DNA of 63,915 nucleotides, counting the filler, from Reclinomonas americana ATCC 50394 (Eukaryota), in assembly GCA_048213135.1 (NCBI GenBank). It is 5 parts of 4 records of this genome, joined end to end, with 100 filler letters (N's around TTAATTAATTAA, not from the genome) between each part and the next. Parts side by side here need not be neighbours in the genome. Positions count along the whole stretch, not along the records: positions 1 to 26,257 come from PS015351.1; 4 more parts are not named here. The stretch is one strand, 5' to 3'. Shown piece after piece: positions 1,343 to 54,239 of the stretch. The translations under genes were made by a program, and so were the position numbers. The notes under the pieces were generated by a model. That model did not search any database and was not told the origin of the DNA. It saw only the letters and a program-made list of their open reading frames with translations. Positions within the stretch are counted from its first letter, which is position 1. Each line of letters starts with the position of its first letter.

Positions 1343-1720
1343 TGCGGTGAAGATCGCAGTTCTCGAAGCTCCGAGAGCGAAGACGTGCACAGAAACCTGC
1401 TGTTTGTGTTGATATGGTTGGACTAGCTGCGTGTTTGTTGGTGAATTGTGTTGTTGCTGACACCACTTGGAATTCGAATTTGGCGTCAATTGCAAGCCGT
1501 TTCTCTTGCAGAAACGCCGACTATTTCTCGAGCCTGCTTCCGTGATGTCTCCTTACTCATGACGGTGATCATAATGCAGCTGTCTTGATGACCAAGTTCA
1601 ACCGTATCCAAAACATCAACACAAACACCAATCTTGAGGCAGCAGCAGGTTCCTTGTGTGTGTGTGTGCGTGCGCGCTCTCGGAGCTCCGAACAAGTCGA
1701 GAACTGCGATCTTCACCGCA
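1343..1720. mobile_element. Foldback/MITE-like element with long imperfect inverted arms
   Basis: 1343-1366 (tgcggtgaagatcgcagttctcga) is the perfect reverse complement of 1697-1720. 1367-1379 pairs with 1675-1687. The right arm has a close copy at 36866-36966. No clear TSD. Confidence 0.55.
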
Positions 1721-1870
1721 TAAGCGTGGTTGACCAGTGGATCTTTTGCTCATTGATCATCATGCAGCTGTGCTGCTCTTTGCTTCTAAATTCTTTGCTT
1801 TGTTTCTCTTCTTATGACCACCTGGTGTCACATCGCCCCATCACCTCACTGCCTTTTCCGTCTCTGCGTC

Positions 1871-4645
1871 ATGAGCGCACAACCTCCATCGGCGGCTCCG
1901 GCCCAGGGAGTGCCTCGACTGCCCGCTGACCCGCCCTCGCCAGACAACACCGACAGCGATCGCGAGGGCGCAGAGGGCGAGGGCGAGGACGAAGTGCCAA
2001 AGCCGGTGCGGGGCTGGGGCACTTGCGCCATGTCCGGTACACGCTGTCGCACAACACGCTCACTCTCTCTCCACGTATACACAGGAGGCACTCTCGCGTC
2101 AGTCAAGCCCACAACACATGCGCCGCTCGTCACAGTTCAACACGCGCGCCAACTCGCCGTTCCTCGGTGAGTCCATCCATGATTGTGCGCGCATCACTCT
2201 GTCTCTCACACACACACGCTGATTCAGATATGCGAATGGGCGACCACTCACGGCTTCCCATGCGCGCCGGCAGCCCCGGCGGCGACAGTCAGATGAGCAA
2301 CGATGACACGTCGTTGATTGGCTACGGCGTGCTCTCTCCACCGTCTCCCTCGGTGCCAGTGCTGCAGCCGCTTCAGCACGTCTCTCCCGGCTCGCCAGTG
2401 TCGACGGCGGCGGCGCGAGGCGGTGGCTCGCGAGCCGTGCGCGCCAGTGGTCTGTGGTAGTGTAGATTGCGTTCTGTAGGCGCTGTGCGGACGACTGATC
2501 ACTCGCCGCACGCAGTGACCGAGGATGGTTACAGTGGCGTGTCGTTGTTTCAGGATGCCAACAGCGTGTTTGGTGGGCGCTCGGTGAATGCTGCCACGCC
2601 GGCTGTGGGACGACCGTCCAGCGTTTCGTTGCAGTGTGTTGCTTTTGCGTCCACGACGCGATGCTCACGTCTTTGCTGCGTGCAGACTCAATGGGATCCA
2701 CGACTGCCTCCACCACGCACACCGTCGCCGCCTGCGTACTATCAGGAGTACACGCGTCTGTCGCCGGTGCAGCGGCATCAACCGGTGCGTCACTCGCCGC
2801 CACTGCCGTTGCAGCAACAGCAGCAGCAGCAGCAGCAGCCACACACGCTGCCGGCTGTTGGTCCGCCACCACGTCTGCCCGTACCGCCAGGCGCCTCCTT
2901 CATGTCGAATGGCCATACGAGAGGGGACTCTGGCAATCGCACGCCCGTGCAGCCGTTTGTGTCACCGTATGATCGCGTGAAGGGTGTCGAGGACGAGGAC
3001 GACATGCGGGTGACGGATGCTGGTGGCCACTTGCGTCGGCGCAGTAGCAGCGACGTGACAGCTGGTGGTGGTAAGAAGCAGCACGATGAGGAGGAGGACG
3101 CGGAGACGAAGCGCTCGCGTCGTCACCTTGAGTACATTGGCACCGATCACCCGGTGGAGAGACGCACGCTGCCGAGTGCACGCAAGCCGCCGCTGTTGCC
3201 CATTGACACACCGGGCGCCGAACTCGAGGAGAAGCTGCGCTCGTTGCGCAGCCCGACCTCCCCACAGCCGCGCTCGCCACCTGGTCGGCGGCGCAGCTGG
3301 AGTGCGCGGCAGAGTCGGTCGGGATCTCGTGCGGGCTCACGCACCGGCAACGAGACTGACGGCATGCCGACCCCCGGCGATGTGGAAGACAATCGCTCCG
3401 TGGTCAGCGACACGGCGGACCAGGCGGACGGCAAGACGCGCCGCAAGTCGTCCATGGTGGAGGTGGACGAGGACGACGACACAGCATCCAGCAACACCGA
3501 CAAGGCGCATCAGCGACTGCTACAGCTGCGCGAGATCAGCGGCAGTCCGCTCTCCTCGCCCGTCCACGGCCGCTCGTACTTGCGACCAATGGGCGACGGT
3601 GGTGTGGCGCCCCGACCGTCGAGGTGAGGCGGGAGGTGTAGGAGAATGAGGCTGTCTGTGTGCGTGTGTGTGTCTCACCCTTGTCTTGCTGGCAGACTGC
3701 AACCCATGTTTGAGTTGCCGGCTCCGACGGGCCGCCGCGTGACACTGCGCACGGCGCCGACCGACCTCGACGGCAAGAGCGGCAAGGCCTTTGACTTTGA
3801 CAGCGTGACACCCGGCAACGACCTGACGACCAACAGCTCCACACTCGGCTCCGGTCTCACACCGGACCGCGATCAGGCGCTGCGATATCTCCTGCTCGAG
3901 TTGCGCATTCGTTTGATTTCTTTTCTGTGTTTTTCTCGCTCTCTCTCTGTGCTCATGCGCCGCTCGTACAGGGACAAGCACATTGTGCGCATGTCCAGAC
4001 GGACGCGCTGCTGGCTGGCCGTGATCACAGGCATCGTGGCGGCGATCGTGTTACTCATAGTTTGTCACTCGGCACACAAATTCTCATCTGTCTGTGCTGA
4101 CGTTTTCCCCTCTCGTGCGCAGGTGGCCTTTATCATCTTTGTGTTTGCGTCGCGCCAGCTGTGGACAAGCTGGGTCATCACCGGCGGCCTGGTCGTGCAA
4201 GGTATGTTGGTGGAAATCCATCGGAGCGCCGACCAACCGACGCAATCGAACATATCTCTTTTTTCCTCGCTCTCTCTTCGATGCACACACACAGGCACGC
4301 AAGATAGCAATAGTAGGCACACGCTCTTCCCTCTCCTCCCCCCCACACACCATCTCTCTCGCGTTGCACACTGTGGTGGGATTTTCAGCGGTTCTCGTTG
4401 CATTTTGCCGCACATCGAATTTCCCCGCATCCCACAAGCGACAATGTGATCGGTCCGAGGGTGACCTGGCGCATGGCCGTCCTTNNNNNNNNNNNNNNNN
4501 NNNNNNNNNNNNNNNNNNNNNNNNNNNNNNNNNNNNNNNNNNNNNNNNNNNNNNNNNNNNNNNNNNNNNNNNNNNNNNNNNNNNNNNNNNNNNNNNNNNN
4601 NNNNNNNNNNNNNNNNNNNNNNNNNNNNNNNNNNNNNNNNNNNNN

Positions 4646-4684
<39 letters not shown>

Positions 4685-7030
4685 CGAAACTGGTGGCGTT
4701 CACCACTGGCCAGTGACGCGCGACCAGCAGCGTGCCCGTGTCACTGGAACTCGAGATGGAGTAGCCGTCGGTAAAGTTTAAACTGCAAAAGGAACGGGTG
4801 AGTGAGACGGTGCGTTAAAGGAGTGAGGAGTGCGTGTGGCGCACCTGGCAGCACTCCTCGTACTGAATCCGTCGCGGTACACATTGCTCGGAACAATGCC
4901 GGCGTTCATGGGGAAGTGGGAGGGTGCAATGCGCAGGAAACTCATGTCGGCGCCGGCATCGTTGTTGCTCAGTTGCAGGGCGTAGCCGGAGTTGTGGGTG
5001 CCTGCGTTGAGGGAAAAGAAGGGTGGGAAAGGGGAACAGAGGGAAAGGGAAAAGGGGGGAAAAAAGAAGGGGGGAAGGGAGAAGGGAGGAAGGGATAGGG
5101 AGAAGGCAACGCTCCCGAGGACACAGAGTGAAGAGATGATGCAGTGAACTCGGTCATTCGCTGCCTCGCAAGGAAAAATAGAGCACGGTCAGTTGCATGA
5201 ACCAAAGCGTGAAGCCAATCTTCTTATTGCCAGAGTGAAGAGTGAAGAGTGCAGAGCTAATGCAGCGCAAACTCAGAAATCCCATCTCCCGAGCCGTCAA
5301 GTAAAGAGGGTTGCAGAGAACCCAAGCTTCTGCCAACGCAGTCTCTTTTCTCGACCCTCAGAGTGAAGTCGGTGATTTCAGTCTTCCATCTGCACAATCC
5401 CTCCTTTCACCATCGCTCTCTCCTCTCAATCCCAAAGAGCAAAAAGACTTCGGCGAACCATCTCAGTCGAAAACAAGCTCTCTCTCCAATTTCCAAGAAG
5501 AGTCGTCGCGCAAGAGTACTCGCCAATCTCTCAAACAAATGCGTGAAGTGGAAAGGTTTTGCGAATGGTCTTCCCAACCTCACGAGTAGTACGAGCGAGG
5601 AGGATTGCGTCTCGCAACACGCTCTCCTCTCAATCCCACAGAGACTGTGCCGCACGAACTCTCTCTCTCTCCTCTTCTCCCTCTCATTCTTCGCTTTCCA
5701 AATCCAATAGGAGGCGTGGGGCGAGCGAACTCGACCTCCACACTCAAACAAATAGTGTCGTGCAGCCCCATCATTCGACAGAGTGCACCTACGGCCTACC
5801 CCTCTGTCCAAAGGACGTGCATTGGGGCCGAGATCCGTAGACAGCTGCTGCCTGCTTGAACGCAGCAAACTCCGACCAGGTAAGTATGAAAAGAGCAGCN
5901 NNNNNNNNNNNNNNNNNNNNNNNNNNNNNNNNNNNNNNNNNNNNNNNNNNNNNNNNNNNNNNNNNNNNNNNNNNNNNNNNNNNNNNNNNNNNNNNNNNNN
6001 NNNNNNNNNNNNNNNNNNNNNNNNNNNNNNNNNNNNNNNNNNNNNNNNNNNNNNNNNNNNNNNNNNNNNNNNNNNNNNNNNNNNNNNNNNNNNNNNNNNN
6101 NNNNNNNNNNNNNNNNNNNNNNNNNNNNNNNNNNNNNNNNNNNNNNNNNNNNNNNNNNNNNNNNNNNNNNNNNNNNNNNNNNNNNNNNNNNNNNNNNNNN
6201 NNNNNNNNNNNNNNNNNNNNNNNNNNNNNNNNNNNNNNNNNNNNNNNNNNNNNNNNNNNNNNNNNNNNNNNNNNNNNNNNNNNNNNNNNNNNNNNNNNNN
6301 NNNNNNNNNNNNNNNNNNNNNNNNNNNNNNNNNNNNNNNNNNNNNNNNNNNNNNNNNNNNNNNNNNNNNNNNNNNNNNNNNNNNNNNNNNNNNNNNNNNN
6401 NNNNNNNNNNNNNNNNNNNNNNNNNNNNNNNNNNNNNNNNNNNNNNNNNNNNNNNNNNNNNNNNNNNNNNNNNNNNNNNNNNNNNNNNNNNNNNNNNNNN
6501 NNNNNNNNNNNNNNNNNNNNNNNNNNNNNNNNNNNNNNNNNNNNNNNNNNNNNNNNNNNNNNNNNNNNNNCTCTCTCTCTCTCTCGATGAGGAGAGGCTG
6601 ACTCGCGCTGCTACTACAGCACCGTCCACTTCCTTCCCGGTCTCCACCGAGAGCGAGATCATTCTTGAGACCCTCATTGGCGGCGGTGTGCGCTTCAACG
6701 AGGACGTGACGGTGGCGACATCGCGCTTCAACTTTGGCATGGTCGACTCGCAGAGTGCCAGTGGTGGTGCGTCCATTCAAGCGTGCAGTCTTCCAGTGCT
6801 AGCTGACTCATCTGCGATCACGCGCACACTTGCACAGTCACCTTTACGCACGACAGCACCGGCTTGGTGATTCGCACCACCAATACCACCTCCAATGGTG
6901 ACATTTATTTGCGACCCAAGAGCCAGCGGCTGCTGCTGGACGGCCAGCTGTGCTACCTGGGCATGGCCGGGTCACCAGTTTCGTTGTTGACCACAGCACG
7001 GCATCTCTTGTGCGCGCGCTGACACCACTT

Positions 7031-7078
<48 letters not shown>

Positions 7079-10000
7079 TTCCTCTCCCTCTCACTCTCCC
7101 CATTCCCTCTCCCTCTCCCTTCCCCCTTTCCAGACGACACCCACTTGTTTGCAAGTGAGTGGCAACGGTACGCTGTCGCTGGAGCCCAAGATCGGCAACA
7201 GTATCTCCGCCGACACCAACAACTTTATCATCTCCAACACTGGTGGCATCACTCTCAAACCCGGCAAGTTGCGTTGCTGCCACAATCACGTGCTGGTGTT
7301 ATTTTTTCCCTGTCATGCTGACGAATTCCACAGTGGCATTCTCGACTTTGTCACCGACACGTGGAATGTGAACACGCGCGGTGGCGACTTTCGCATGCAG
7401 CAAACATCGACCAACTCGACATTCTACATTGCGCCTGGGTCGCGTAGACTCGTGGTCGAGGGTCGTTTGATTGCAGAGGACGGTGTGGATCTGCCGAGCG
7501 TGATCACCAACCAAGTTGCGTCGCTGTTCTATCTCGCGATTGTCAGCGTTTTTTACTCACCATCGCTTGGTGATGTCGACGCACAGGTCAGTGTGCGAGA
7601 CCCGTCGGCCAACCTTACGCTCACTACCGGCAGCAGCGGGCAAATCACACTGCAGGCCACCACACTAGCATTTGCGAACAGTTGCGATTCTTCTCAATCC
7701 GTGCGATGTCTGCGTCTCTCTCTCACTCTCACTCTCCCGAATTGCAGGCACGAGCTCGATTCGCACCGCGGGCGACGGCAGTCTCGTACTCACACCCTCC
7801 GCACCGTCCAACGAAGTGGTGATTGCTGGCACACTCAACGTGGCGAATTTGGTGGCCAGCAACTTCCAGACGGATTCGGTTCGCACGCTCTTCTCTTGTT
7901 CTGCTTGTGCATCGCCCTTATCTCACCTCTGCCCCCCTCTCACTTCTGTCCACAGCTGACCTCCAGCATGGGCAACCCACTCACACTGACCAGCTCCACT
8001 GGCACTCTGTTCTTTGTCGGCGACGAGTTGTTTGCGCAGAACACGGCCACGCAGTTCCGCATCCGCAATCAAGTCGGTGACATTGAGCTGCAACCGTTCT
8101 CCGGCGTGCTGCGGTCCGTGCTTTTGTGTTTTTCTCCCTGTCAACCCAACGCTCTTTTACTCATTGCGCTGTACCGCAGATTAACTGGCTCCACATTCCG
8201 CGGCAGCGCCACACTGACAGTGGCGTCGGCCAGTGGCTCAGTGGCCTTGGCGTCGTCCGCCCTCGCACAGCCAGTGCGCATTGTGTCGGGCGTGCTGCGT
8301 GGCGAGCCGCAGAGTTTGGTTTCCGCGCACTGTCACCCCATCCCAGTCGTCATGCATTCTACTCACTGGCATGTGTTTGGACAGGCGGCACCACCTTCCA
8401 GATTCAGACGGGCACCGAAGACATTCTCGTATCGCCCGGCTCCAACATTCTTCGGTGAGTATGCATTTCTGCGCCACGCCCCACTTATCCTGTTTTTCTC
8501 ACTCTGTGATCGACGCAGCATTGGTGCCACGACGGTGCGCGCCGAAACCACACTGCTGCTGACGTCGACCTCGAGCGACATTACCGTGCAGCCGGCAACC
8601 GGAGTGGCCGTCATCACGCAAGCTTCCGGAACGAACACGCTGCGACTGGCGGGCACGGCGCCACCGACTCTGTCGACCACTGGACCCGCTGCTTCGGTAC
8701 GTCACAACAGCTGGTGGGGTTGACTTGCTGTTTTGCTCACACGTACGCTGCACAGGGAGCGGGCTTGATTCTGTCGCCAGCCAATGGCAGCGTGCGCATC
8801 ACCGGCACCTCGAACACGCTGGACGTTAATCAGCGTGTTACGCTATCGGGGTCCGGTACCGGCACGGTGACGGTGGCGGCGGCCGGTGGCAGTCCGTCGG
8901 CCTCGCTCACCAACTCGTCACTCGCCTCCACAGCCGCCTCCTTTGCAATCAGCGTGACGGGCACACCCTCCAGCACGCTGACAGTCGCCCCCGCTGGCGT
9001 GTTCACCATGGCGGCGGGCACGGCATCCATTGTCACCGACACGGCGCGTGGTGGCGTCTTCCTCACCGACTCGGTCGGCCGTTTCGACCTCACCAAGTCG
9101 TTGCGTGTCTGTCATTATTTTGGAGGGAATGTGGGTTTCATTCGGCGCCAGCTAACAGCGGCATCGCACAGATCACTGCTGACGGACCAGAGCACCCTCA
9201 CTCTCGGTGTGGGCGCGAGTGCGGGCACGGTGCCGTCGGCGTCGGCCACCATCCAACTGGCGGCGGCGACCACCACTCTTTCGGCGGGCACGCTGCAAGT
9301 GAGCACGCTGGCGACCATCAATGGCAGCACCGGCACGCTGACCATCTCCGATGGCACCGGTGGCTTCACGCGCATGACCTCCACGTTGCGTGCCATGTTA
9401 TCAAGCACAACTCTTGTTCATTCATCGTGAACTCACTCGATCGATGCAGGCTGATCCAATCGTCACCGTCACACCTGTCGCTGCAGGGCACAGGCACAGG
9501 AGTTGCGTTCATGCCTCTGCAAGTGCTCATCGACAACCTGTGCTCATTCCGTCATCATTATACAGAAAGTGCGCTCTTTGAGCTCCTTCTCCGTGACCGC
9601 TCCGAACGGCACCACGGATGCCATGACATTCGACACTGGCACCGCGACAACCACGTGGACCATGGGCACCACTGCTACGCAGTTGCAGTGGTATGACTGG
9701 GCGAGTTGCGTGCACATGCAGCGTCTCTCTGTTCTCCTCTTGACCCCGCAATCTGACCGTCGTCGCATCACAGCCGGTGTCGCTCGCATGGACATGTCGC
9801 TGAGCAGCAATGGCAATCTGCAAGTTCGAGGCATTGTGCGTCGCCGTTTGGCTGCTCCTCACTCCAATCTGCACGACACTAATTGACACCATGCCAAATG
9901 TCGCAGGTCACCATGTCATCTCGCCGTTTCAAGACCAACATCACACCGATTGACACCAACATTGCGCTGGATCGCATCCTCAGCCTGCAGGGTGTGCAGT

Positions 10001-10517
10001 ACGACCGCACTGTTGCGTCTGCCCACCGCATGCGCGGATGTGTATCCCTTGTTTCTTGGCTGACGACTGCATGTTTGTGTGCTCGGTAGGACGTGGCAAA
10101 CACGCGTCGGTGGACGGGTCTCATTGCCGAGGACGTACTGAACATTGTTCCGGAGGTGCGTTGCCAAGCACGCACTCCATGTTTGCACGCTGTCTCTCAC
10201 TCACTGTTTTTTTGCGTCGCCAGGTGGTCATGGTGGAGGACGGCCAGGTGCAAGCCATTGCGTACCAGGAGCTCGTTCCGTTCCTGATTGAGAGCGTCAA
10301 GGCGCTGAAATCGGAGCTCGACGCCTCGAAGAGCCGCATCCAGGAACTGGAGGATCTCGTACGACAACCGCCACCACCGTGCCAACTGAACGATCAGTCG
10401 GCACCACAGCCGGCCGATGCCGGTGTGGACACGGCGAGCTTGTTGGTGGTGATCCGCGACATGGCGGCGAGGTTACAGAGGTTGGAGAACGAAAAAACGG
10501 CATCGAATGGCCGATAA
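1871..10517 (+). CDS. Large multi-exon predicted type II membrane protein: disordered Pro/Ser/Arg-rich N-terminus, one TM helix, Ser/Thr/Gly beta-rich tail-fibre-like shaft, C-terminal Peptidase S74 (ICA) domain and coiled coil
   Basis: More than 25 in-phase GT-AG introns. TM segment WLAVITGIVAAIVLLI-VAFIIFVFA at ~4012-4150. C-terminus VTMSSRRFKTNITPIDTNIALDRILSLQGVQYDRT-DVANTRRWTGLIAEDVLNIVPE-VVMVEDGQVQAIAYQELVPFLIESVKALKSELDASKSRIQELE matches the S74 pattern (SxxxxK..I, G.IAE/Q....PE.V, Y......L.E..K.L). The start codon and the exons around the gaps are less certain. Confidence 0.8.
4691..5001 (-). CDS. Two exons (5001-4845, 4782-4691) that probably belong to the 1871-10517 gene, on a reversed contig
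   Basis: Translate to THNSGYALQLSNNDAGADMSFLRIAPSHF...SLNFTDGYSISSSSDTGTLLVARHWPVVNAT. The second exon ends in phase 1 before a (CT)n intron, matching the (CT)n start at 6571 and the phase-1 exon at 6620. Confidence 0.65.
5713..5887 (-). ncRNA. U1: U1 spliceosomal snRNA
   Basis: Minus strand starts AUACUUACCUGG. SL1 is GCUGC-[GUUCAAGCAG]-GCAGC. SL2 is CUACGG..GCCCC-[AAUGCAC...]-GGGGU..CCGUAG. SL3 is GUGCA..UGCAC. Helix H is GUCG/CGAC, followed by an Sm-like site AUUUGUUUG and SL4 capped by UUCG. Length ~175 nt. Confidence 0.9.
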
Positions 10518-10715: not shown

Positions 10716-12481
10716 TCAGCGGCGAGCACCTTCGGCACCACCAGCGCCCTCTGCGGCAGCGGCCTGCTGTTCGGCCTGCTCCGCCTCGATGCGGCTCACC
10801 GCCTGCGACACCTCCTCCTCCGTCAGGTAGCGGATCGGTGCATTCGGGTACATCACCGCCACCTCGACATTCTTCGAGCCGCTCTCCACCACCTCGAGCA
10901 GCGTGCGAATGGACAGCATCACTGCGTCGTCGCCAGATGGCGGCTCCGTGTAGTGCTTCTCCAAAAACTCGCGGCACGTCTTCTCGCCGCGACCAATTGC
11001 ATTCGCCTATGCGCACAGAGGTTGTGAGTACGCATGCCTACTCACCAACTCCAGACCACCACAGCGGCGAATTGCCCACCTTCCACGCCGAAAAGGCACC
11101 CGACGGCTCCGTCGTGTACAATCGTGGAGTGCCGTCCGAGTCGAAGCCAGCCACCAGATTGGACACACCTGGTGGGCGGTGAGCAAAGAAGGAGAAGATG
11201 GAGATAGAGATAGATCACTTGAGAACGCACCAAAGGGCCGCACGCCACCACTCTGCGTGTATCGCTGCTGCACCTTGGCAATGTGACGAGTAATGTAGTC
11301 GACCGACACGGCGTCCTCGAATGTCAGGCGGAACGACTGGCACTCCANNNNNNNNNNNNNNNNNNNNNNNNNNNNNNNNNNNNNNNNNNNNNNNNNNNNN
11401 NNNNNNNNNNNNNNNNNNNNNNNNNNNNNNNNNNNNNNNNNNNNNNNNNNNNNNNNNNNNNNNNNNNNNNNNNNNNNNNNNNNNNNNNNNNNNNNNNNNN
11501 NNNNNNNNNNNNNNNNNNNNNNNNNNNNNNNNNNNNNNNNNNNNNNNNNNNNNNNNNNNNNNNNNNNNNNNNNNNNNNNNNNNNNNNNNNNNNNNNNNNN
11601 NNNNNNNNNNNNNNNNNNNNNNNNNNNNNNNNNNNNNNNNNNNNNNNNNNNNNNNNNNNNNNNNNNNNNNNNNNNNNNNNNNNNNNNNNNNNNNNNNNNN
11701 NNNNNNNNNNNNNNNNNNNNNNNNNNNNNNNNNNNNNNNNNNNNNNNNNNNNNNNNNNNNNNNNNNNNNNNNNNNNNNNNNNNNNNNNNNNNNNNNNNNN
11801 NNNNNNNNNNNNNNNNNNNNNNNNNNNNNNNNNNNNNNNNNNNNNNNNNNNNNNNNNNNNNNNNNNNNNNNNNNNNNNNNNNNNNNNNNNNNNNNNNNNN
11901 NNNNNNNNNNNNNNNNNNNNNNNNNNNNNNNNNNNNNNNNNNNNNNNNNNNNNNNNNNNNNNNNNNNNNNNNNNNNNNNNNNNNNNNNNNNNNNNNNNNN
12001 NNNNNNNNNNNNNNNNNNNNNNNNNNNNNNNNNNNNNNNNNNNNNNNNNNNNNNNNNNNNNNNNNNNNNNNNNNNNNNNNNNNNNNNNNNNNNNNNNNNN
12101 NNNNNNNNNNNNNNNNNNNNNNNNNNNNNNNNNNNNNNNNNNNNNNNNNNNNNNNNNNNNNNNNNNNNNNNNNNGACCAAGGTCAACACAAAGAGACTGC
12201 TTGCTGGTGTCTTGCGTGCCTCGCATAGAGAAGCAAGAATGGGAGGAAAAAGTCGAGGGTGGGCGAGAGCGAGAGTGCGCGACGAGGCACGATAGAAGTT
12301 TCCACGGAGGAAACAGGCGGAGTGGCTCTTCGTGAGCGTCGTCAGAGGGATGGAGAAAGAATTAAAGAAAGAAAGAAAGAAAGAAAGCAAGAGAGAGAGA
12401 GAGAGAGATAGAAGAGAAGACATGAGAAGATGAAAGTACACAACGGAGAACGAGAGCTCGAGTCGTCTTACGTGCGTCCTA

Positions 12482-26257: not shown

Positions 26258-26301
26258 NNNNNNNNNNNNNNNNNNNNNNNNNNNNNNNNNNNNNNNNNNN
26301 N

Positions 26302-26313
26302 TTAATTAATTAA
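26302..26313. other. Artificial six-frame-stop linker (assembly spacer)
   Basis: TTAATTAATTAA flanked by N runs. Confidence 0.95.
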
Positions 26314-26357
26314 NNNNNNNNNNNNNNNNNNNNNNNNNNNNNNNNNNNNNNNNNNNN

Positions 26358-40138: not shown

Positions 40139-43100
40139 TTATGCCTCCATGAGCTGCCGAAGTCGCTCCATCTGCTCGCGCACGGCCAGCAACTCTTTCT
40201 CGACGCGCCGCTGAACTTCGGTCTCCAGTTGCTCAGCGATGCGTCGTCGTTCCTCCGCCAGCTGCTCCGCAACCGCCGCAGCAGCTCGTCTCCTTTCCTC
40301 CGCAAGCCGGTCTTCAACCTCCGCAGCAGCTCGTCGTCTTTCCTCCGCAAGCCGCTCTTCAGCTTGGTTTCTTTCCTCAGCCAGCCGCTCTTCGACCTCC
40401 GCAGCAGCCCGTCTCCTCTCCTCCACCAGCCGCTCTTCAACTTCCGCAGCAGCCTGCCGCCTCTCCTCCGCCAACCGCTCCTCAAACACCGCTCGATTCC
40501 TCTCAATGAGCGCCTGCTGTTCGCGGACGGCCTCCACGAGCAGCGCCACCACCGGGCCGTACTCGACCTTCTTGAACCTTTCACCGCGCACAGCTTGTAG
40601 CTCCGATACCAGTTCTGGGAAGTGCTCCTCGAGCTCCTGTGCGATAAAGCCAACAGATGGCGATCCAACAGGCTTGCCAAAGAGACGAGACACCTGCCCG
40701 CAGACCACAAAAAGTGAGTGCTCGAATCATCTCGAGCGTGGCACTTCCACGAACACCGCACCTCATTCCACTCGTATCGGTGGCCACTGAGACGCAGAGT
40801 CAGGCCCAATGCATTCTCAATCGGACGAATGTTGGCCTTCAATCGTACGTCAGACATGGAGTTGTCGAGCGCCACCGTGTGCACATTCGAATCTCCGGTC
40901 TTGAACACCAACTGCGTACACGCGACAACGACAAAAGAGTTAGTTCACGGACAAGTAGACACAGAAAATTGTTAAAGTGTAATGCGACGAGCACGCAACA
41001 TGGCCACTGTCGAAGAATAGCGCGGCATCATTCGTGGCCGGATCGTCGACATCTGCTGCCGCCGTGGCCTTCAGATAGAGCGCGGTGGTCGACATGCCTC
41101 CATTGGCGAGAACTGTCTCGCCTTCGATGCTGCCCATTGTTGTGAAGCTGCCGGCGCTCACCAGGCCGAACGAGCTCACGGTACCAGATTTGACTGATCC
41201 AATCGTTGTCACGCTACCGCCAGTGATTAGGCCGCTAGCAATCACCGTCGAACCGGTGCTAATGGTGCCTGCTTGCATGCTGCCGGCGGTCGTCACACTG
41301 CCGCCAGTGATCAGTCCGCCGGCAATCACAGTCGAGCCAGTGCTGATGGTGCCGGCTTGCATGCTTCCCGTGGTGGTGAAACTTCCAGCGCTCACCAACC
41401 CGAATGAGCTCACAGTACCCGACTGCATGCTCCCTGCCGTCGTCACGCTGCCGCCAGTGATCAAACCACCGGCAATCACAGTCGAGCCGGTGCTGATCGC
41501 GCCAGCTTGCATGCTGCCCGTGGTGGTGAAACTTCCAGCGCTCACCAAGCCGAATGAGCTCACAGTGCCAGACTGCATGCTGCCTGCCGTCGTCACGCTG
41601 CCGCCGGTGATCAAGCCGCCAGCCGTCACAGTCGAGCCAGTGCTGATGGTGCCGGCTTGCATGCTTCCCGTGGTGGTGAAGCTTCCAGCGCTCACCAACC
41701 CGAATGAACTCACAGTGCCGGACTGCAGATAACCAGCCGTCGTCACGCTGCCGCCGGTGATCAAGCCGCCGGCCGTCACAGTCGAGCCAGTGCTGATCGT
41801 GCCAGCTTGCATGCTGCCCGTCGTCGTGAGACTGCCTCCGCTGACCAAGCCGAACGAGCTCACAGTGCCGGACTGCAGGTAACCAGCCGTCGTCACACTG
41901 CCGCCAGTGATCAAGCCACCGGCTGTCACAGTCGAGCCGGTGCTGATCGTCCCTGCTTCCATGCTTCCCGTGGTGGTGAAGCTACCAGCACTGACCAGAC
42001 CAAACGAGCTTACAGTGCCAGACTGCATGCTGCCAGCCGTCGTCACGCTGCCTCCAGTGATCAAGCCGCCGGCAATAACCGTCGAACCGGTGCTGATCGT
42101 GCCAGCCTGCATGCTTCCCGTGGTGGTGAAACTTCCGGCACTGACCAGACCGAATGAGCTCACAGTGGCAGACTGCAGATAACCAGCAGTCGTCACACTG
42201 CCGCCAGTGATCAAGCCGCCGGCAACAACCGTCGAGCCGGTGCTGATCGTACCGGCTTGCATGCTGCCAGTCGTCGTCACACTGCCGCCGCTGATCAGTC
42301 CGAACGAGCTCACAGTACCCGACTGGAGATAACCCGCCGTCGTCACGCTGCCACCAGTAATCAAGCCACCAGCCGTCACAGTCGAGCCGGTGCTGATCGT
42401 GCCTGCTTGCATGCTTCCCGCGGTGGTGAAGCTTCCAGCGCTGACCAAACCGAACGAACTCACAGTACCAGACTGGAGGTAACCAGCCGTCGTCACGCTG
42501 CCGCCGGTGATCAAGCCGCCGGCAACAACCGTCGACCCAGTGCTGATGGTGCCTGCTTGCATGCTTCCCGTGGTGGAGAAGCTACCGGCACTGACCAGGC
42601 CGAATGAGCTCACAGTGCCCGACTGCATGCTGCCTGCTGTCGTCACACTGCCGCCAGTAATCAAGCCGCCGGCTGTAACAGTCGAGCCAGTGCTGATCGT
42701 GCCAGCTTGCATGCTACCCGTCGTCGTGAGACTGCCTCCGCTCACCAACCCGAACGAGCTCACAGTGCCGGACTGCAGGTAACCAGCCGTCGTCACACTG
42801 CCGCCAGTGATCAGTCCGCCGGCCGTCACAGTCGAGCCGGTGCTGATGGTGCCAGCCTGCATGCTTCCCGTGGTGGTGAAGCTACCTGCGCTGACCAGAC
42901 CAAACGAGCTCACAGTGCCAGACTGCAGATAACCCGCCGTTGTCACACTGCCACCAGTGATCAAGCCACTGGCGATCACAGTCGAGCCAGTGCTGATGGT
43001 CCCGGCTTGCACGCTACCAGTCGTCGTCACACTGCCTCCGCTGACCAGACCGAACGAGCTCACAGTGCCCGACTGCATGCTACCCGCCGTCGTCACACTG

Positions 43101-46100
43101 CCGCCGGTGATCAAGCCACCGGCAATCACCGTCGAGCCGGTGCTAATCGTGCCAGCTTGCATGCTTCCCGTGGTGGTGAAGCTACCGGCGCTCACCAACC
43201 CGAATGAGCTCACAGTGCCCGACTGCATACTGCCTGCCGTCGTCACGCTGCCGCCAGTGATCAAGCCGCCAGCAACAACCGTCGAGCCGGTGCTGATCGT
43301 GCCCGCTTCCATACTGCCAATCGTCGTCACACTGCCGCCGCTAATCAGTCCGAACGAGCTCACAGTGCCCGACTGGAGATAACCTGCCGTCGTCACGCTG
43401 CCACCAGTAATCAAGCCACCAGCTGTAACAGTCGACCCAGTGCTGATGGTGCCGGCTTGCAAGCTTCCCATGGTGGTGAAGCTTCCGGCACTGACCAGAC
43501 CAAACGAGCTCACAGTGCCCGACTGCATACTGCCCGCCGTTGTCACACTGCCACCAGTGATCAAGCCGCCGGCAACAACCGTCGAGCCAGTGCTGATGGT
43601 GCCAGCCTGCATGCTGCCCGTGGTGGTGAAGCTTCCAGCGCTGACCAGACCGAATGAGCTCACAGTGCCCGACTGCATGCTACCCGCCGTCGTCACGCTG
43701 CCACCAGTGATCAAACCGCCGGCCGTCACAGTCGAGCCAGTGCTGATCGTGCCGGCTTGCACGCTGCCAGTCGTCGTCACACTGCCTCCGCTGACCAGAC
43801 CGAACGAGCTCACAGTGCCCGACTGCAGATAACCAGCTGTCGTCACGCTGCCACCAGTGATCAAGCCGCTGGCGATCACAGTCGATCCAGTGCTGATGGT
43901 GCCTGCTTGCATGCTGCCCGTGGTGGTGAAGCTACCGGCACTGACAAGACCGAATGAGCTCACAGTGCCAGATTGCATGCTGCCCGCCGTTGTCACACTG
44001 CCACCAGTGATCAAACCGCCGGCAATAACCGTCGAACCGGTGCTGATCGTGCCGGCTTCCATACTGCCGATCGTCGTCACACTGCCTCCGCTCACCAAGC
44101 CGAACGAGCTCACAGTACCCGACTGCATGCTGCCAGTCGTCGTCACACTGCCGCCGCTGATCAGTCCGAACGAGCTCACAGTGCCAGATTGTAGATAACC
44201 AGCAGTCGTCACACTACCACCAGTGATCAGTCCGCCGGCCGTCACAGTCGAGCCAGTGCTGATCGTGCCGGCTTGCATGCTGCCAGTCGTCGTCACACTG
44301 CCTCCGCTGACCAAACCGAACGAGCTCACAGTGCCAGACTGCATACTGCCTGCCGTCGTCACGCTGCCACCAGTGATCAAGCCGCTGGCGATCACAGTCG
44401 ACCCAGTGCTGATGGTGCCCGCTTCCATGCTTCCCGTGGTGGTGAAGCTTCCGGCACTCACCAGGCCGAACGAGCTCACAGTGCCGGACTGAAGGTAACC
44501 AGCCGTCGTCACACTGCCACCAGTGATCAGTCCGCCGGCCGTCACAGTCGAGCCAGTGCTGATCGTACCGGCTTGCATGCTGCCAGTCGTCGTCACACTG
44601 CCGCCGCTGATCAGTCCGAACGAGCTCACAGTGCCCGACTGAATGCTGCCAGCCGTCGTCACACTGCCACCAGTGATCAAGCCGCCAGCCGTCACAGTCG
44701 AGCCGGTGCTGATGGTGCCAGCCTGCATGCTTCCCGTGGTGGTGAAGCTACCTGCGCTGACCAGACCAAACGAGCTCACAGTGCCAGACTGAAGGTAACC
44801 AGCCGTCGTCACACTGCCGCCGGTGATCAAGCCACCGGCTGTCACAGTCGAGCCGGTGCTGATCGTGCCGGCTTGCATGCTACCCGTCGTCGTGAGACTG
44901 CCTCCGCTGACCAACCCGAACGAGCTCACAGTGCCAGACTGCAGATAACCAGCCGTCGTCACACTGCCGCCAGTGATCAAGCCGCCGGCAACAACCGTCG
45001 AACCGGTGCTGATCGTGCCCGCTTGCATGCTGCCCGTGGTGGTGAAGCTACCTGCGCTCACCAATCCGAACGAGCTCACAGTGCCGGACTGCAGATAACC
45101 AGCAGTCGTCACACTACCGCCAGTGATCAAGCCACCGGCAACAACCGTCGAGCCGGTGCTGAAGGTGCCAGCCTGCATGCTGCCTGTGGTGGTGAAACTT
45201 CCAGCGCTGACCAAACCGAACGAGCTCACAGTGCCGGACTGCAGATAACCAGCCGTCGTCACGCTGCCGCCGGTGATCAAGCCGCCAGCCGTCACAGTCG
45301 AGCCAGTGCTGATCGTGCCGGCTTGCATGCTTCCCGTGGTGGTGAAGCTTCCAGCGCTCACCAACCCGAATGAGCTAACAGTGCCAGACTGCATACTGCC
45401 TGCCGTCGTCACACTGCCGCCGGTGATCAAGCCACCGGCAACAACCGTCGAGCCGGTGCTGATGGTGCCCGCTTGCATGCTGCCCGTCGTCGTCAAACTG
45501 CCGCCACTCACCAGACCGAACGAGCTCACAGTACCCGACTGCATGCTGCCTGCCGTCGTCACGCTGCCGCCGGTGATCAAGCCACCAGCTGTAACAGTCG
45601 AGCCGGTGCTGATCGTGCCAGCCTGCATGCTACCCGTGGTGGTGAAGCTTCCGGCACTGACCAAACCGAACGAGCTCACAGTACCCGACTGGAGGTAACC
45701 AGCCGTCGTCACGCTGCCGCCAGTGATCAAGCCGCCGGCTGTAACAGTCGAGCCGGTGCTGATCGTGCCGGCTTGCATGCTGCCCGTGGTGGTGAAGCTT
45801 CCAGCGCTGACCAGGCCGAATGAGCTCACAGTGCCAGACTGCATGCTGCCTGCCGTCGTCACACTGCCGCCGGTGATCAGACCGCCGGCTGTAACAGTCG
45901 AGCCGGTGCTGATCGTGCCGGCTTGCACGCTGCCCGTCGTCGTGAAACTGCCTCCGCTCACCAACCCGAATGAGCTCACAGTGCCCGACTGCAGATAACC
46001 AGCTGTCGTCACGCTGCCACCAGTGATCAAGCCGCTGGCGATCACAGTCGATCCAGTGCTGATGGTGCCCGCTTGCATGCTGCCCGTCGTCGTCAAACTG

Positions 46101-49100
46101 CCTCCGCTCACCAAGCCGAACGAGCTCACAGTGCCCGACTGGAGGTAACCCGCCGTCGTCACGCTGCCGCCAGTGATCAAACCGCCGGCCGTCACAGTCG
46201 AGCCAGTGCTGATCGTGCCAGCTTGCATGCTGCCCGTGGTGGTGAAGCTTCCAGCGCTGACCAGGCCGAATGAGCTCACAGTGCCAGACTGCATGCTGCC
46301 TGCCGTCGTCACACTGCCGCCGGTGATCAGACCGCCGGCAATCACCGTCGAACCGGTGCTGATCGTACCGGCTTGCATGCTTNNNNNNNNNNNNNNNNNN
46401 NNNNNNNNNNNNNNNNNNNNNNNNNNNNNNNNNNNNNNNNNNNNNNNNNNNNNNNNNNNNNNNNNNNNNNNNNNNNNNNNNNNNNNNNNNNNNNNNNNNN
46501 NNNNNNNNNNNNNNNNNNNNNNNNNNNNNNNNNNNNNNNNNNNNNNNNNNNNNNNNNNNNNNNNNNNNNNNNNNNNNNNNNNNNNNNNNNNNNNNNNNNN
46601 NNNNNNNNNNNNNNNNNNNNNNNNNNNNNNNNNNNNNNNNNNNNNNNNNNNNNNNNNNNNNNNNNNNNNNNNNNNNNNNNNNNNNNNNNNNNNNNNNNNN
46701 NNNNNNNNNNNNNNNNNNNNNNNNNNNNNNNNNNNNNNNNNNNNNNNNNNNNNNNNNNNNNNNNNNNNNNNNNNNNNNNNNNNNNNNNNNNNNNNNNNNN
46801 NNNNNNNNNNNNNNNNNNNNNNNNNNNNNNNNNNNNNNNNNNNNNNNNNNNNNNNNNNNNNNNNNNNNNNNNNNNNNNNNNNNNNNNNNNNNNNNNNNNN
46901 NNNNNNNNNNNNNNNNNNNNNNNNNNNNNNNNNNNNNNNNNNNNNNNNNNNNNNNNNNNNNNNNNNNNNNNNNNNNNNNNNNNNNNNNNNNNNNNNNNNN
47001 NNNNNNNNNNNNNNNNNNNNNNNNNNNNNNNNNNNNNNNNNNNNNNNNNNNNNNNNNNNNNNNNNNNNNNNNNNNNNNNNNNNNNNNNNNNNNNNNNNNN
47101 NNNNNNNNNNNNNNNNNNNNNNNNNNNNNNNNNNNNNNNNNNNNNNNNNNNNNNNNNNNNNNNNNNNNNNNNNNNNNNNNNNNNNNNNNNNNNNNNNNNN
47201 NNNNNNNNNNNNNNNNNNNNNNNNNNNNNNNNNNNNNNNNNNNNNNNNNNNNNNNNNNNNNNNNNNNNNNNNNNNNNNNNNNNNNNNNNNNNNNNNNNNN
47301 NAACCCGAACGAGCTCACAGTACCCGACTGGAGATAACCAGCCGTCGTCACGCTGCCGCCGGTGATCAAGCCACTAGCTGTAACAGTCGAACCGGTGCTG
47401 ATCGTGCCCGCCTGCATGCTGCCCGTCGTCGTGAGACTGCCGCCGCTGACCAAGCCGAACGAGCTTACAGTACCCGACTGGAGATAACCAGCCGTCGTCA
47501 CACTGCCGCCGGTGATCAAGCCACCGGCTGTCACAGTCGAGCCGGTGCTGATCGTGCCGGCTTGCATGCTACCAGTGGTGGTGAAACTGCCTCCGCTCAC
47601 CAACCCGAACGAGCTCACAGTGCCGGACTGCATGCTGCCTGCCGTCGTCACGCTGCCACCAGTGATCAAGCCACCAGCTGTAACAGTCGAGCCAGTGCTG
47701 ATCGTGCCGGCTTGCATGCTTCCCGTGGTGGTAAAACTTCCAGCGCTCACCAATCCGAACGAGCTCACAGTGCCAGACTGCATGCTGCCTGCCGTCGTCA
47801 CACTGCCGCCAGTGATCAAACCGCCGGCAACAACCGTCGAGCCAGTGCTGATGGTACCAGCCTGCATGCTGCCAGTCGTCGTCACACTGCCTCCGCTCAC
47901 CAACCCGAATGAGCTCACAGTGCCGGACTGCATACTGCCTGCCGTCGTCACACTGCCGCCAGTGATCAAACCGCCGGCAGCAACCGTCGAGCCGGTGCTG
48001 ATCGTGCCCGCTTGCATGCTGCCCGTCGTCGTGAGACTGCCTCCGCTCACCAATCCGAACGAGCTCACAGTGCCAGACTGCAGATAACCCGCCGTCGTGA
48101 CGCTGCCGCCAGTAATCAAANNNNNNNNNNNNNNNNNNNNCCCGTCGTCGTCACGCTGCCGCCGCTGACCAAACCGAACGAGCTCACAGTACCCGACTGC
48201 AGATAACCAGACGTCGTCACACTGCCGCCAGTAATCAAACCGCCGGCCGTCACAGTCGAGCCAGTGCTGATGGTGCCTGCTTGCATGCTGCCCGTCGTCG
48301 TGAGACTGCCGCCACTCACCAGACCGAACGAGCTCACAGTGCCAGACTGCAGATAACCAGCAGTCGTCACACTACCACCAGTGATCAAGCCGCCAGCCGT
48401 CACAGTCGAGCCAGTGCTGATGGTGCCGGCTTGCATGCTTCCCGTGGTGGTGAAGCTTCCAGCGCTGACCAGACCGAATGAGCTCACAGTGCTCGACTGA
48501 AGGTAACCAGCAGTTGTCACACTGCCGCCAGTGATCAAGCCACCGGCAACAACCGTCGAACCGGTGCTGATGGTGCCGGCTTGCATGCTTCCCGTGGTGG
48601 TGAGACTGCCTCCGCTCACCAATCCGAACGAACTCACAGTGCCAGACTGCATGCTGCCTGCCGTCGTCACGCTGCCGCCGGTGATCAAGCCACCAGCTGT
48701 AACAGTCGCACCGGTGCTGATCGTGCCCGCCTGCATGCTTCCCGTGGTGGTGAAGCTTCCAGCGCTGACCAGACCAAACGAGCTCACAGTGCCCGACTGC
48801 ATACTGCCTGCCGTCGTCACGCTGCCGCCAGTAATCAAACCGCCGGCAACAACCGTCGAGCCGGTGCTGATCGTGCCGGCTTGCATGCTGCCAGTCGTCG
48901 TCACACTGCCTCCGCTGACCAAGCCGAACGAGCTCACAGTACCCGACTGGAGATAACCAGCAGTCGTCACACTGCCGCCAGTGATCAGGCCGCCGGCCGT
49001 CACAGTCGACCCAGTGCTGATCGTGCCTGCTTGCATGCTGCCCGTGGTGGTGAAGCTACCTGCGCTGACCAGACCAAACGAGCTCACAGTGCCAGACTGC

Positions 49101-51520: not shown

Positions 51521-51600
51521 CTGCAAGGCGGGCACGTAGTTGGCTGATTGTGTCACNNNNNNNNNNNNNNNNNNNNNNNNNNNNNNNNNNNNNNNNNNNN

Positions 51601-51612
51601 TTAATTAATTAA
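51601..51612. other. Artificial six-frame-stop linker
   Basis: TTAATTAATTAA within N runs. Confidence 0.95.
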
Positions 51613-51684
51613 NNNNNNNNNNNNNNNNNNNNNNNNNNNNNNNNNNNNNNNNNNNNTCTCTCTCTTCTTTCTTCTTCTTCTTCT

Positions 51685-51737
<53 letters not shown>

Positions 51738-51812
51738 TTCTCCCTTCTCCCTCCCTTTCCCTTTTTCTCCTCCCTTTCCCCTTCTGTGCCCCCTCTCACC
51801 CCCTTCCCACAG

Positions 51813-54207
51813 GGCGCCCGTGACAACTCGGGCTCCCGCGGCGGCGGCTCGACTAACTCTGGCAGTGCCCTGCCCGCCCCCGTCGGTCTCGGCCGTGGTG
51901 GCGGCGGCGGTGGTGGTGGCGGCCTGATTGCCCCTCCGGGGCCAATGATGCGCGGCCCCCCGCCTCCCAATGTCGGACAAGCGTCTCTCTTGGCTCCGCC
52001 ACCGATCGTTGCGTCTCTTGTTTGGGGTGGCGCCGCGTTCTTCTCCTTGCGTATCTCACTTGCGTCTTGTGGTTCTCGCCGTCAGCGCCCGGGTCCGCCG
52101 CCTGCTGGTTTGTCATGCTCGCATTTCTCTAGTTCACTGTTGCCTCGCTCTGTTCTCAACTCCCTCTCCCCCCCCATAGTGGGACGCGGAGGTGGAGAAC
52201 CGCTCATGGACGGACGGCCGTATGTGCCCGCTGGTGCCGGTCCTATGATGCACGCCCACGACGGCAGTGGGCCGGCTGGTGGTGGCCTCATGCCGCCGCC
52301 TCCCATGAAGCCAATGCCGCCACCGCAGCCGCGCGATGCTGACGGCTTCCAGCAGGGCGGGCGAATGATGGCACCGATGCCACCGCCACCCGGCCGTCGC
52401 CCTGACCCGGTGCGTTTATTCTTCTCCATTGTTCATTATCGCGTCGTTGTTGGTATAACTCATGCGCCTTCAATTTCATATAGCACGGTGAGGGTGGTGG
52501 CTATTTGCTGCAGCAACCGCCGCCACAGCAGCACCAGCAGCAACAGCCTCCGCCCGGACAAATGATGCCGCAGCACGTGGACGCTGGCTTTGGCGGAGGT
52601 GCGCATCGCATGCCGCAAGCCCCGATGCCCATGCAGCCGCCGCCAATGCAGCAGCAGCCACCACCGCAGCAGCAGCAGGGGTGGGGACCGCAGTCCATGC
52701 AGGCTCCGCCGCACCCGCAGATGCAGCAGCGACCGATGCCGCCGGGTGCACCGCCACCGCAGCAGCAGCAGCAGCAGCAACCACCGCAGTTTATGCAACA
52801 AGCACCGATGCCACCGCCACAGCAGCAGCAACAGCAGCCACAAGGATACTTCCCTGGTGGACCGCAGCAGCAGCAGCCCCAAGCGCAGCAGCCAATGATG
52901 ATGATGCAGGGTTANNNNNNNNNNNNNNNNNNNNNNNNNNNNNNNNNNNNNNNNNNNNNNNNNNNNNNNNNNNNNNNNNNNNNNNNNNNNNNNNNNNNNN
53001 NNNNNNNNNNNNNNNNNNNNNNNNNNNNNNNNNNNNNNNNNNNNNNNNNNNNNNNNNNNNNNNNNNNNNNNNNNNNNNNNNNNNNNNNNNNNNNNNNNNN
53101 NNNNNNNNNNNNNNNNNNNNNNNNNNNNNNNNNNNNNNNNNNNNNNNNNNNNNNNNNNNNNNNNNNNNNNNNNNNNNNNNNNNNNNNNNNNNNNNNNNNN
53201 NNNNNNNNNNNNNNNNNNNNNNNNNNNNNNNNNNNNNNNNNNNNNNNNNNNNNNNNNNNNNNNNNNNNNNNNNNNNNNNNNNNNNNNNNNNNNNNNNNNN
53301 NNNNNNNNNNNNNNNNNNNNNNNNNNNNNNNNNNNNNNNNNNNNNNNNNNNNNNNNNNNNNNNNNNNNNNNNNNNNNNNNNNNNNNNNNNNNNNNNNNNN
53401 NNNNNNNNNNNNNNNNNNNNNNNNNNNNNNNNNNNNNNNNNNNNNNNNNNNNNNNNNNNNNNNNNNNNNNNNNNNNNNNNNNNNNNNNNNNNNNNNNNNN
53501 NNNNNNNNNNNNNNNNNNNNNNNNNNNNNNNNNNNNNNNNNNNNNNNNNNNNNNNNNNNNNNNNNNNNNNNNNNNNNNNNNNNNNNNNNNNNNNNNNNNN
53601 NNNNNNNNNNNNNNNNNNNNNNNNNNNNNNNNNNNNNNNNNNNNNNNNNNNNNNNNNNNNNNNNNNNNNNNNNNNNNNNNNNNNNNNNNNNNNNNNNNNN
53701 NNNNNNNNNNNNNNNNNNNNNNNNNNNNNNNNNNNNNNNNNNNNNNNNNNNNNNNNNNNNNNNNNNNNNNCGGGCAGCCGCAAATGCACCAGCAGCCGCC
53801 GCCACAGCAGCAGCCACCGCAGCAGTTTATGCAAGGAGGCGGGTACTATGGCCAGCAGGGGCAGCAGATGCAGCCCATGGTTCCGCAACAGCAGCAGCCG
53901 GCAATGGCGATGCAAGGACAAGCGCCGGTGAACGCGACTGGTGTTCGACTGCCGCCGGGTTGGAGCGAGTACGAGGACGATGAGCGTCGCAAGTACTACT
54001 TCAATCCGACCACCAATGAGACGACGTGGAGCTACCCGCCAAACACGATGCAGGGTGGCATGCCGCAGCAGCAGCAGCANNNNNNNNNNNNNNNNNNNNN
54101 NNNNNNNNNNNNNNNNNNNNNNNTTAATTAATTAANNNNNNNNNNNNNNNNNNNNNNNNNNNNNNNNNNNNNNNNNNNNGCAACCCCAGCAGCACCAACA
54201 TCCGCAC

Positions 54208-54239
<32 letters not shown>

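Follow-up and report, generated by a model that had tools for sequence, protein, structure and literature searches.

Detailed knowledge of the intramolecular chaperone (ICA) domain, or S74 domain, comes from phage fibres and from MYRF. MYRF cleaves itself only as a trimer, and ICA trimerisation is driven by a C-terminal triple coiled coil (PMC8326128). A 2025 preprint (CryoSeek) links this domain to very large extracellular glycofibrils in alveolates. It presents the TLP-12 candidates, some 150 proteins that were found in six alveolate species or strains and bear GSxxSx7 dodecapeptide repeats; the example analysed there has a C-terminal ICA domain, through which, the authors propose, three chains come together as a glycosylated triple beta-helix fibril (bioRxiv 10.1101/2025.09.30.679562). 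In the main text of that preprint, the words 'transmembrane', 'anchor' and 'signal peptide' occur 0 times each and the anchoring of the fibril is not discussed. Here we analyse positions 1871-10517 of a 63,915-nt window (the whole stretch of DNA under study) from Reclinomonas americana ATCC 50394 (assembly GCA_048213135.1), where a sequence-only reading had placed an S74 fibre gene built like a receptor, with a cytoplasmic tail, a transmembrane (TM) helix, a fibre and a chaperone. We found that a fibre followed by an intramolecular chaperone is indeed present, whereas the type II topology, the reverse of that of MYRF, hinges on a join between the TM exon and the fibre that the assembly does not show.

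By its sequence, the region covered by exons 9907-10514 encodes an intact S74/ICA domain in which the Ser/Lys dyad is kept. Exon A (9907-10011, plus strand) carries the motif SSRRFK, i.e. the predicted cleavage Ser and a Lys five residues on, and scored 33.3 bits against Pfam family PF13884 (cut-off 22, E 6e-08, profile positions 1-29), the match beginning at the first S of SSRRFK (profile position 1); the open reading frame (ORF) 9883-10089 gave 32.9 bits. Exon B (10090-10155, plus strand), with GLIAEDV...PE, reached 12.5 bits over profile positions 37-55, which is sub-threshold alone but collinear with exon A. Exon C (10224-10517, plus strand) contributes LIESVKAL, two helices and the stop codon (10515-10517). 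The five-residue spacing of Ser and Lys in SSRRFK is the same as in the dyads S587/K592 of MyRF and S911/K916 of endoNF (PMC8326128). The two introns announced by the sequence-only reading inside the S74 domain (10012-10089 and 10156-10223) are both obligatory, since one has a stop and the other shifts the frame.

The comparison with phage families pointed in the same direction. Exon A matched the PHROG tail-fibre families 1980 and 5668 (E 1.5e-05), exon C matched PHROG families of tailspikes and tail fibres at their C-terminal ends (e.g. phrog_4636, 717-754 of 763), and the two exons matched phrog_11011 in collinear order, exon A at 1180-1210 and exon C at 1244-1284 of 1291. Among named ESM Atlas clusters, the three that scored best with exon A (0.84-0.88, to be taken as leads only) contain PF13884 without exception, and one of them is mostly Nucleocytoviricota (0.85). 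The coiled coil proposed earlier can be followed as far as an AlphaFold2 (AF2) monomer prediction of the last exon, which gave helices at residues 14-47 (pLDDT about 95) and 70-94 (mean pLDDT of the exon, 74.3), in agreement with the C-terminal triple coiled coil described for ICA domains (PMC8326128). A sequence search of the PDB returned 0 matches for ORF 9883-10086 and, for the last exon, 4 matches with E 0.33 or worse and no ICA protein among them; a search of longer proteins with the last exon (10224-10514) yielded none among 307 candidates (E up to 10).

Upstream of the S74 domain lies the Thr/Ser/Gly-rich shaft. It was modelled, as a best guess, as 15 plus-strand exons between 6620 and 9835, namely 6620-6766, 6838-6977, 7134-7267, 7334-7514, 7587-7680, 7748-7878, 7956-8125, 8180-8313, 8385-8454, 8519-8696, 8756-9106, 9152-9415, 9487-9539 (doubtful), 9583-9704 and 9774-9835. 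An earlier choice for the first shaft acceptor, 6592/6595, was dropped in favour of 6620. In the final model the shaft comprises 847 residues and its composition (T 15.7%, S 12.6%, G 10.3%) is the one that had been announced. The recurring 'I.L.P' turn noticed at first sight is also real: the motif [ILVFM]-x-[ILVFM]-x-P holds 12 of the 32 shaft prolines where 2.33 are expected, a number reached in 0 of 1000 shuffles. The shaft displays no periodicity beyond lag 2; its best lag score, found at lag 2, is 0.22, and shuffles reached at most 0.216.

Searches with the shaft gave little. None of the 14 shaft exons scanned (0/14) reached the cut-off of any Pfam family, and the 11 scanned against PHROGs produced one weak match, to a family of unknown function (E 0.021). 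The read-through ORF 7023-8720 (566 residues) had 0 matches at E up to 0.001 among 1.84 billion representatives, a search in which the intron-coded stretches lower sensitivity; for exon 8756-9106, none was scored among 8000 candidates when it was compared with longer proteins. The ESM Atlas look-alikes of this same exon (best score 0.88, all <0.9, leads only) are bacterial beta-solenoid surface proteins, in S-layer, haemagglutinin and autotransporter clusters. A complex prediction with three copies of exon 8756-9106 scored 0.00 and 0.00, which is evidence neither way. A tblastn search of the region 1700-5899 with the shaft gave a best E of 8.5.

The gene ending in the S74 domain is, as its modelled structure argues, a resident, intron-rich cellular gene. 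The argument lies in its many spliceosomal introns, 16 of the 24 modelled across both halves of the locus being obligatory (no read-through), in a branch-like motif present in 23 of these 24 introns (see below) and in its housekeeping neighbours. Neighbouring ORFs match proteasome, MORN and WD40 families (a GAS-like match stayed below its cut-off), no viral gene was found among the 34 neighbouring ORFs scanned, and about 200 nt separate the stop codon of the gene from the end of ORF 10719-11006, which codes for the proteasome match. The earlier estimate of more than 25 introns is reached if the whole locus is one gene (27 introns, 1,604 aa) and not if the two halves are taken as modelled (24 introns).

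The window comes from a draft eukaryotic assembly and contains 22 N runs, and exon boundaries were predicted from sequence alone, several of those in the shaft being best guesses. Exons are GC-rich and introns are short and of the GT-AG type, 43-156 nt across the gene modelled at 1871-10517; GC-rich DNA yields long open frames even in wrong frames. The training set of the codon and splice models consisted of exons and introns of this same gene (leaving out X1, X2 and B1, three exons introduced below), and the scores that these models return are therefore not independent. In these models, accepted exons scored 0.2-0.73 per codon and introns were negative; splice-path models run without the codon model or with a low intron penalty were dropped because of read-through or micro-exon artefacts. 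A check independent of model building came from a branch-like motif, CT[GCA]A[CT], which is found at -8 to -50 in 23 of the 24 modelled introns compared to 24% of shuffled intron tails. Note that in these 23 introns the motif sits 13-46 nt before the acceptor, that 6 of the 24 introns have the donor GTTGCG and that the sense strand of the introns is pyrimidine-rich (mean 0.613), often with (CT)n. The GTTGCG donors, the branch-like motif and the pyrimidine bias should be useful gene-finding signals in this genome.

The upstream half of the locus (1871-4201, plus strand) consists of eight exons separated by seven GT-AG introns of 48-79 nt, with a stop-free translation. Exon 1 (1871-2005) begins with the start ATG at 1871 and comprises 45 codons up to a GTGCGG donor at 2006. 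Exons 2-5 (2085-2166, 2228-2449, 2516-2637 and 2686-3623, separated by introns of 61, 66 and 48 nt) encode a disordered Ser/Pro/Arg-rich sequence, and exon 6 (3696-3899, donor GTTGCG at 3900) the end of the presumed cytosolic region. The resulting N-terminal tail has the composition described earlier (S 12.0%, P 12.0%, R 10.5%) and is shorter than had been stated, with 581 disordered residues instead of about 650. It is enriched in basophilic motifs: RRxS occurs 5 times, compared to 0.76 in shuffled sequence (a count of 5 was reached once in 1000 shuffles), and [RK][RK]x[ST] 7 times, compared to 1.75 (a count of 7 was reached in 0 of 1000). The RRxS excess is the sole observation that bears on the signalling tail of the sequence-only reading. 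Scans of ORFs 2461-3627 and 3628-4449 gave no Pfam match above cut-off.

The single hydrophobic helix proposed for this half was readily recovered. It is 25 residues long and split over exon 7 (3972-4059, plus strand), which encodes a basic juxtamembrane stretch (K, H, R, R, R, R) and the first 16 helix residues (WLAVITGIVAAIVLLI), and exon 8 (4123-4201, plus strand), which encodes the last 9 (VAFIIFVFA) and 17 further residues. Its best Kyte-Doolittle 19-mer reaches 3.27, the next best in the whole model being 1.54. The charges flanking the helix are K, H and 4 R on the N-terminal side, compared to 1 R on the C-terminal side. With a single hydrophobic peak and basic residues N-terminal to it, a type II or tail-anchored orientation is the natural reading. 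Indeed, as judged from Kyte-Doolittle hydropathy and a charge count, the sequence has the characteristics of a signal anchor, that is, no N-terminal signal peptide, a single helix and a more positive N-terminal flank.

What lies between the helix and the shaft is less straightforward. Gap 1 (4485-4645, 161 N) is bordered by unique sequence on its left and by (GA)20 on its right, and gap 2 (5900-6570, 671 N) by (CT)7 on its right; the middle contig between them (4646-5899) is 1,254 nt long. No convincing plus-strand coding signal was detected in this contig by coding score or tblastn, and the exons recognised in it lie on the minus strand. With these two gaps and this change of strand, the claim that 1871-10517 forms one continuous plus-strand gene is not confirmed.

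The middle contig is probably mis-oriented in the scaffold, with exons X1 and X2 encoding the proximal part of the shaft. Exon X1 (4845-5001, minus strand) has a phase-1 acceptor of score 6.6 that follows about 100 nt of polypyrimidine, and a phase-2 donor, GTGCGC; its coding score is 0.48 per codon, and no 30-codon window elsewhere in the contig, whichever the strand, scores as high as its best one (0.64). Exon X2 (4691-4782, minus strand) has an acceptor of score 5.89, a phase-1 donor at 4690 (GTTTCG, 4.47) and a coding score of 0.45 per codon. Over both strands of the contig, the two top-scoring 30-codon windows fall within X1 and X2, and the 62-nt intron between these exons has CTCAC at -21 and -17. 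When the contig is flipped, the phase-1 donor of X2 pairs with the phase-1 acceptor at 6620 (score 3.48, CTGAC at -19), and gap 2 comes to lie between two microsatellites, (TC)n at the end of the flipped contig and (CT)n where the following contig begins. The splice-path model scored the flipped contig above the given one at three intron penalties (216.7 vs 201.4, 188.7 vs 163.8 and 164.7 vs 134.3), and the sense-strand pyrimidine bias of the contig points to the minus strand, in agreement with the introns of the gene. It is because of these minus-strand exons, phase-fitting junctions, CT/GA microsatellite ends, splice-path scores and pyrimidine bias that we call the orientation probably wrong. 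An exact 32-nt search of metagenome contigs for X1 gave 0 matches.

The question that decides the topology of the fibre is whether exon 8, with the end of the helix, is spliced to X1. If so, the TM exon, X1, X2, the shaft and the ICA domain would form one gene encoding a 1,604-aa type II protein, a reading for which, on the modelled exons, we see the chances as evenly balanced. Exon 8 has two donors, 4202 (GTATGT, phase 1, score 2.51) and 4206 (GTTGGT, phase 2, score 5.17). The phase of the donor at 4202 is that of the X1 acceptor, so that, once the middle contig is flipped, the join fits in frame. Reading through from exon 8 to the stop at 4447-4449 gave -0.24 per codon, an intron-like value, and the alternative local intron (4202/4206-4294) is without the CT[GCA]A[CT] motif. 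Furthermore, no signal-peptide-like first exon was found upstream of X1 in the flipped middle contig, and the helix would be the only route by which the fibre could enter the secretory pathway. The type II reading of the fibre is conditional on this join, and the key junction sits in a probably mis-oriented contig between two gaps.

Several observations weigh against the one-gene reading. The join requires an intron of at least 1.3 kb, compared to 43-156 nt for the other 26 introns of the gene; it takes the weaker of the two donors, skips an acceptor at 4295 that scores 4.64 and leads to an X1 acceptor that has no branch-like motif within 60 nt. An ATG-initiated exon with a strong phase-1 donor, B1, lies 658 nt upstream of X1. 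The junctions are predicted from the sequence of this one assembly, and the splice and codon scores come from models trained on this gene itself. As to the ectodomain, the shaft shows no enrichment in N-x-S/T sequons (12 compared to 11.2 in shuffles), and the AF2 single-sequence model of shaft exon 8756-9106 reached a pLDDT of 43.9, which gives no indication of the shaft fold.

Another reading is that of two adjacent genes, which we regard as possible although its chances fall clearly short of even. Gene A (1871 to about 4307) would encode a 628-aa tail-anchored protein, with its disordered region in the cytosol and its helix near the C-terminus, and gene B a 1,019-aa ICA fibre whose start would be the ATG of B1 (5774, flipped contig) or lie in a gap, and which would continue with X1, X2 and the shaft. 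Gene A would end in a possible terminal mini-exon (4295-4307, plus strand, acceptor 4.64), which, read from the donor at 4206, gives four codons and then TAG. This donor and this acceptor resemble the accepted sites, the resulting 89-nt intron is of typical length, and the helix would then stand 22 residues from the C-terminus; the intron 4206-4294, however, has no CT[GCA]A[CT], a motif present in 23 of the 24 modelled introns. B1 (5660-5774, minus strand) is a candidate first exon for a separate fibre gene, with an ATG, 38 codons and a phase-1 donor (5.37) that fits X1, and the distance from stop to ATG, about 465 nt with the gap at its stated size, would suit this genome (compare the approximately 200 nt to the proteasome ORF). 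But the coding score of B1 (0.268 per codon) is ambiguous, being no better than that of the GA-repeat ORFs of the same contig (0.27-0.30), and its acceptor as an internal exon scores -1.34. B1 contains no signal-peptide-like or hydrophobic segment either, so that in a two-gene arrangement the Thr/Ser-rich shaft would remain cytosolic, with no recognisable secretion signal. To our knowledge, MYRF is the only precedent of a cytosolic ICA protein. A long intron before X1 is needed under both readings, of at least 1.3 kb for one gene and of 658 nt for two.

Two further possibilities concern the assembly and the integrity of the locus. The fibre could have its own signal-peptide 5' exons hidden in gap 1 or 2, or the middle contig could belong to another fibre paralogue at a different place in the genome, and with either of these the present neighbourhood of TM gene and fibre gene would be uninformative; we consider this unlikely. 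The gaps do total 832 N, the record is stitched by N44-TTAATTAATTAA-N44 linkers elsewhere and a second S74 fibre gene lies in the same window, yet gap 1 is stated as only 161 nt, the junction between X2 and 6620 fits by phase, splice scores, branch motif and microsatellite flanks, and there is no other copy of the contig within the window. That the locus is not a working gene at all, being a decaying copy or an assembly chimera whose frames stay open through GC-rich composition, is very improbable. Such a view could draw on the 8 of 24 modelled introns that are readable through in frame and on the long wrong-frame open frames that arise in GC-rich DNA, but it would have to account for a stop-free path over 26 exons with canonical sites, for an independent motif in 23 of 24 introns, for the intact S74 dyad and profile match, and for coding scores that are uniformly positive in exons and negative in introns.

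Returning to the reading in which the TM exon and the fibre belong to one gene, we propose the following scheme. The phase-1 donor of the TM exon (4123-4201) would be joined to X1 by removal of an intron of at least 1.3 kb. The product would have a 581-aa disordered cytosolic tail, probably phosphorylated, followed by one signal-anchor helix. By analogy with phage endosialidase, tail fibres and MYRF, the C-terminal ICA domains and their helices would bring three chains into register, the shaft would fold as a trimer templated by the ICA domain, and the latter would then cut itself off just N-terminal to the first Ser of SSRRFK, so that about 150 residues would be released. We infer that the mature fibre would be held in the membrane by its N-terminal signal anchor, with its new C-terminal tip distal. 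The polarity would be that of a phage fibre, with the membrane replacing the virion, and the ICA domain would be on the opposite side of the membrane from that of MYRF. The cytosolic tail may couple the fibre to regulation, a speculation prompted by its excess of basophilic kinase-type motifs.

We thus tentatively put forward, at rather less than even confidence, a cell-surface 'tail fibre': a type II TM protein kept on the cell by its N-terminal signal anchor, with a phosphorylatable 581-residue cytosolic tail and, as ectodomain, a trimeric shaft that a phage-type ICA domain would fold and then trim during secretion. If this is true, the fusion of a fibre to an anchor and a long cytosolic tail would show how such fibres are held on the cell, and would suggest that eukaryotic ICA fibres can signal inward. 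No membrane-anchored eukaryotic S74 fibre was found in the literature available as open-licence full text, and a receptor- or adhesin-like architecture appears not to have been described for the S74 domain. The claim of an undescribed architecture nevertheless had to be narrowed: a eukaryotic repeat shaft with a C-terminal ICA domain is already in print, in a preprint whose main text makes no mention of a membrane anchor (bioRxiv 10.1101/2025.09.30.679562), and only the membrane anchor would be new.

The window holds another S74 fibre gene, at 40140-51556 on the minus strand, whose 5' end runs into the linker at 51557. It has an open frame of >1,813 residues (46381-40943), with more beyond a gap, and is made of near-identical 50-residue Gly/Ser/Thr repeats (identity 0.895 at lag 50, sub-periods 11 and 22). 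PF13884 was matched at 27.4 and 18.7 bits on two exons, which are followed by a long Glu/Arg/Ala-rich helical tail. As far as sequence features go, this gene appears to resemble the TLP-12-type alveolate class more closely than the gene at 1871-10517 does. One phase-0 intron position in the S74 domain is common to both genes (40694-40761 on the minus strand, 10012-10089 on the plus strand) and falls between a conserved Tyr, a few residues upstream, and the G-[LF]-I-A motif; the second S74 intron is present only in the gene at 1871-10517. The shared intron position suggests that the two are old paralogues within the lineage. A tblastn comparison of X1, X2 and the proximal shaft with the 5' exons of this other gene gave nothing significant (best E 0.04).

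Elsewhere in the window, four N44-TTAATTAATTAA-N44 linkers are found at 26258-26357, 51557-51656, 54080-54179 and 61424-61523. These are all-frame stop spacers, and the record therefore consists of joined separate scaffolds, across which synteny is untrustworthy. Plus-strand open frames rich in poly-Gln and in Pro/Gly/Met lie at 54136-54705 and 51657-52562, one of which holds a stretch that looks, by eye, like a WW domain. The plus-strand region 61524-63123 is a nucleolar GTPase 2 gene (NOG2/GNL2-type). The best relatives of the exon compared show 48-58% identity among the 120 matches listed (from 5.8 billion protein clusters) and are spread over fungi, insects, plants and haptophytes; identities of at most 58% among the matches listed indicate a poorly sampled lineage, with neither the organism nor its close kin represented in this collection. 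A weak S74-like tblastn match at 62639-62728, inside this GTPase gene, was put down to chance.

How, then, does the gene at 1871-10517 compare with the systems in which the S74 domain is known? With phage endosialidases, tailspikes and tail fibres it shares a C-terminal S74 domain with a Ser/Lys dyad, placed after a beta-rich shaft, and, in the one-gene reading, the polarity, with attachment at the N-terminus and a distal C-terminus. It differs from them in being a cellular gene with about 25 spliceosomal introns, in that 0 of the 11 shaft exons scanned matched a phage tail family (PHROGs), and in that a membrane helix, and not a virion-binding domain, would provide whatever attachment it has. 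The same S74 domain also occurs in viruses of eukaryotes, namely giant viruses and the polinton-like viruses (PLVs) of algae, the term for it being found in papers on cryptophyte PLVs, Heterosigma viruses and Ostreococcus viruses; in contrast, the gene studied here is full of introns and sits among housekeeping genes.

MYRF is alike in being a eukaryotic protein with an ICA domain, a Ser-Lys dyad, one TM helix and a type II orientation, the last two holding here if the join is real. The order of the parts is reversed, however: the ICA domain of MYRF is N-terminal to its TM helix, whereas here it (9907-10514) lies far C-terminal of the helix (3972-4201). Nor was an Ndt80-type DNA-binding domain recognised, no Pfam family reaching its cut-off in ORFs 2461-3627 and 3628-4449, exons 1-4 not being scanned separately, and cleavage would in this case free only the chaperone.

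The TLP-12 proteins, compared here by description only, share with this gene a cellular eukaryotic origin, a long Ser/Thr/Gly-rich shaft and a C-terminal ICA domain. TLP-12 shafts are built on GSxxSx7 repeats, whereas the shaft described here has neither a dodecapeptide nor any other periodicity; TLP-12 proteins reach up to about 20,000 residues, compared to about 850 for this shaft; and the present gene is split by many introns and may carry a membrane anchor and a cytosolic tail. Being a compact, intron-rich cellular gene with a non-repetitive shaft, it would offer a tractable second type of eukaryotic ICA fibre.

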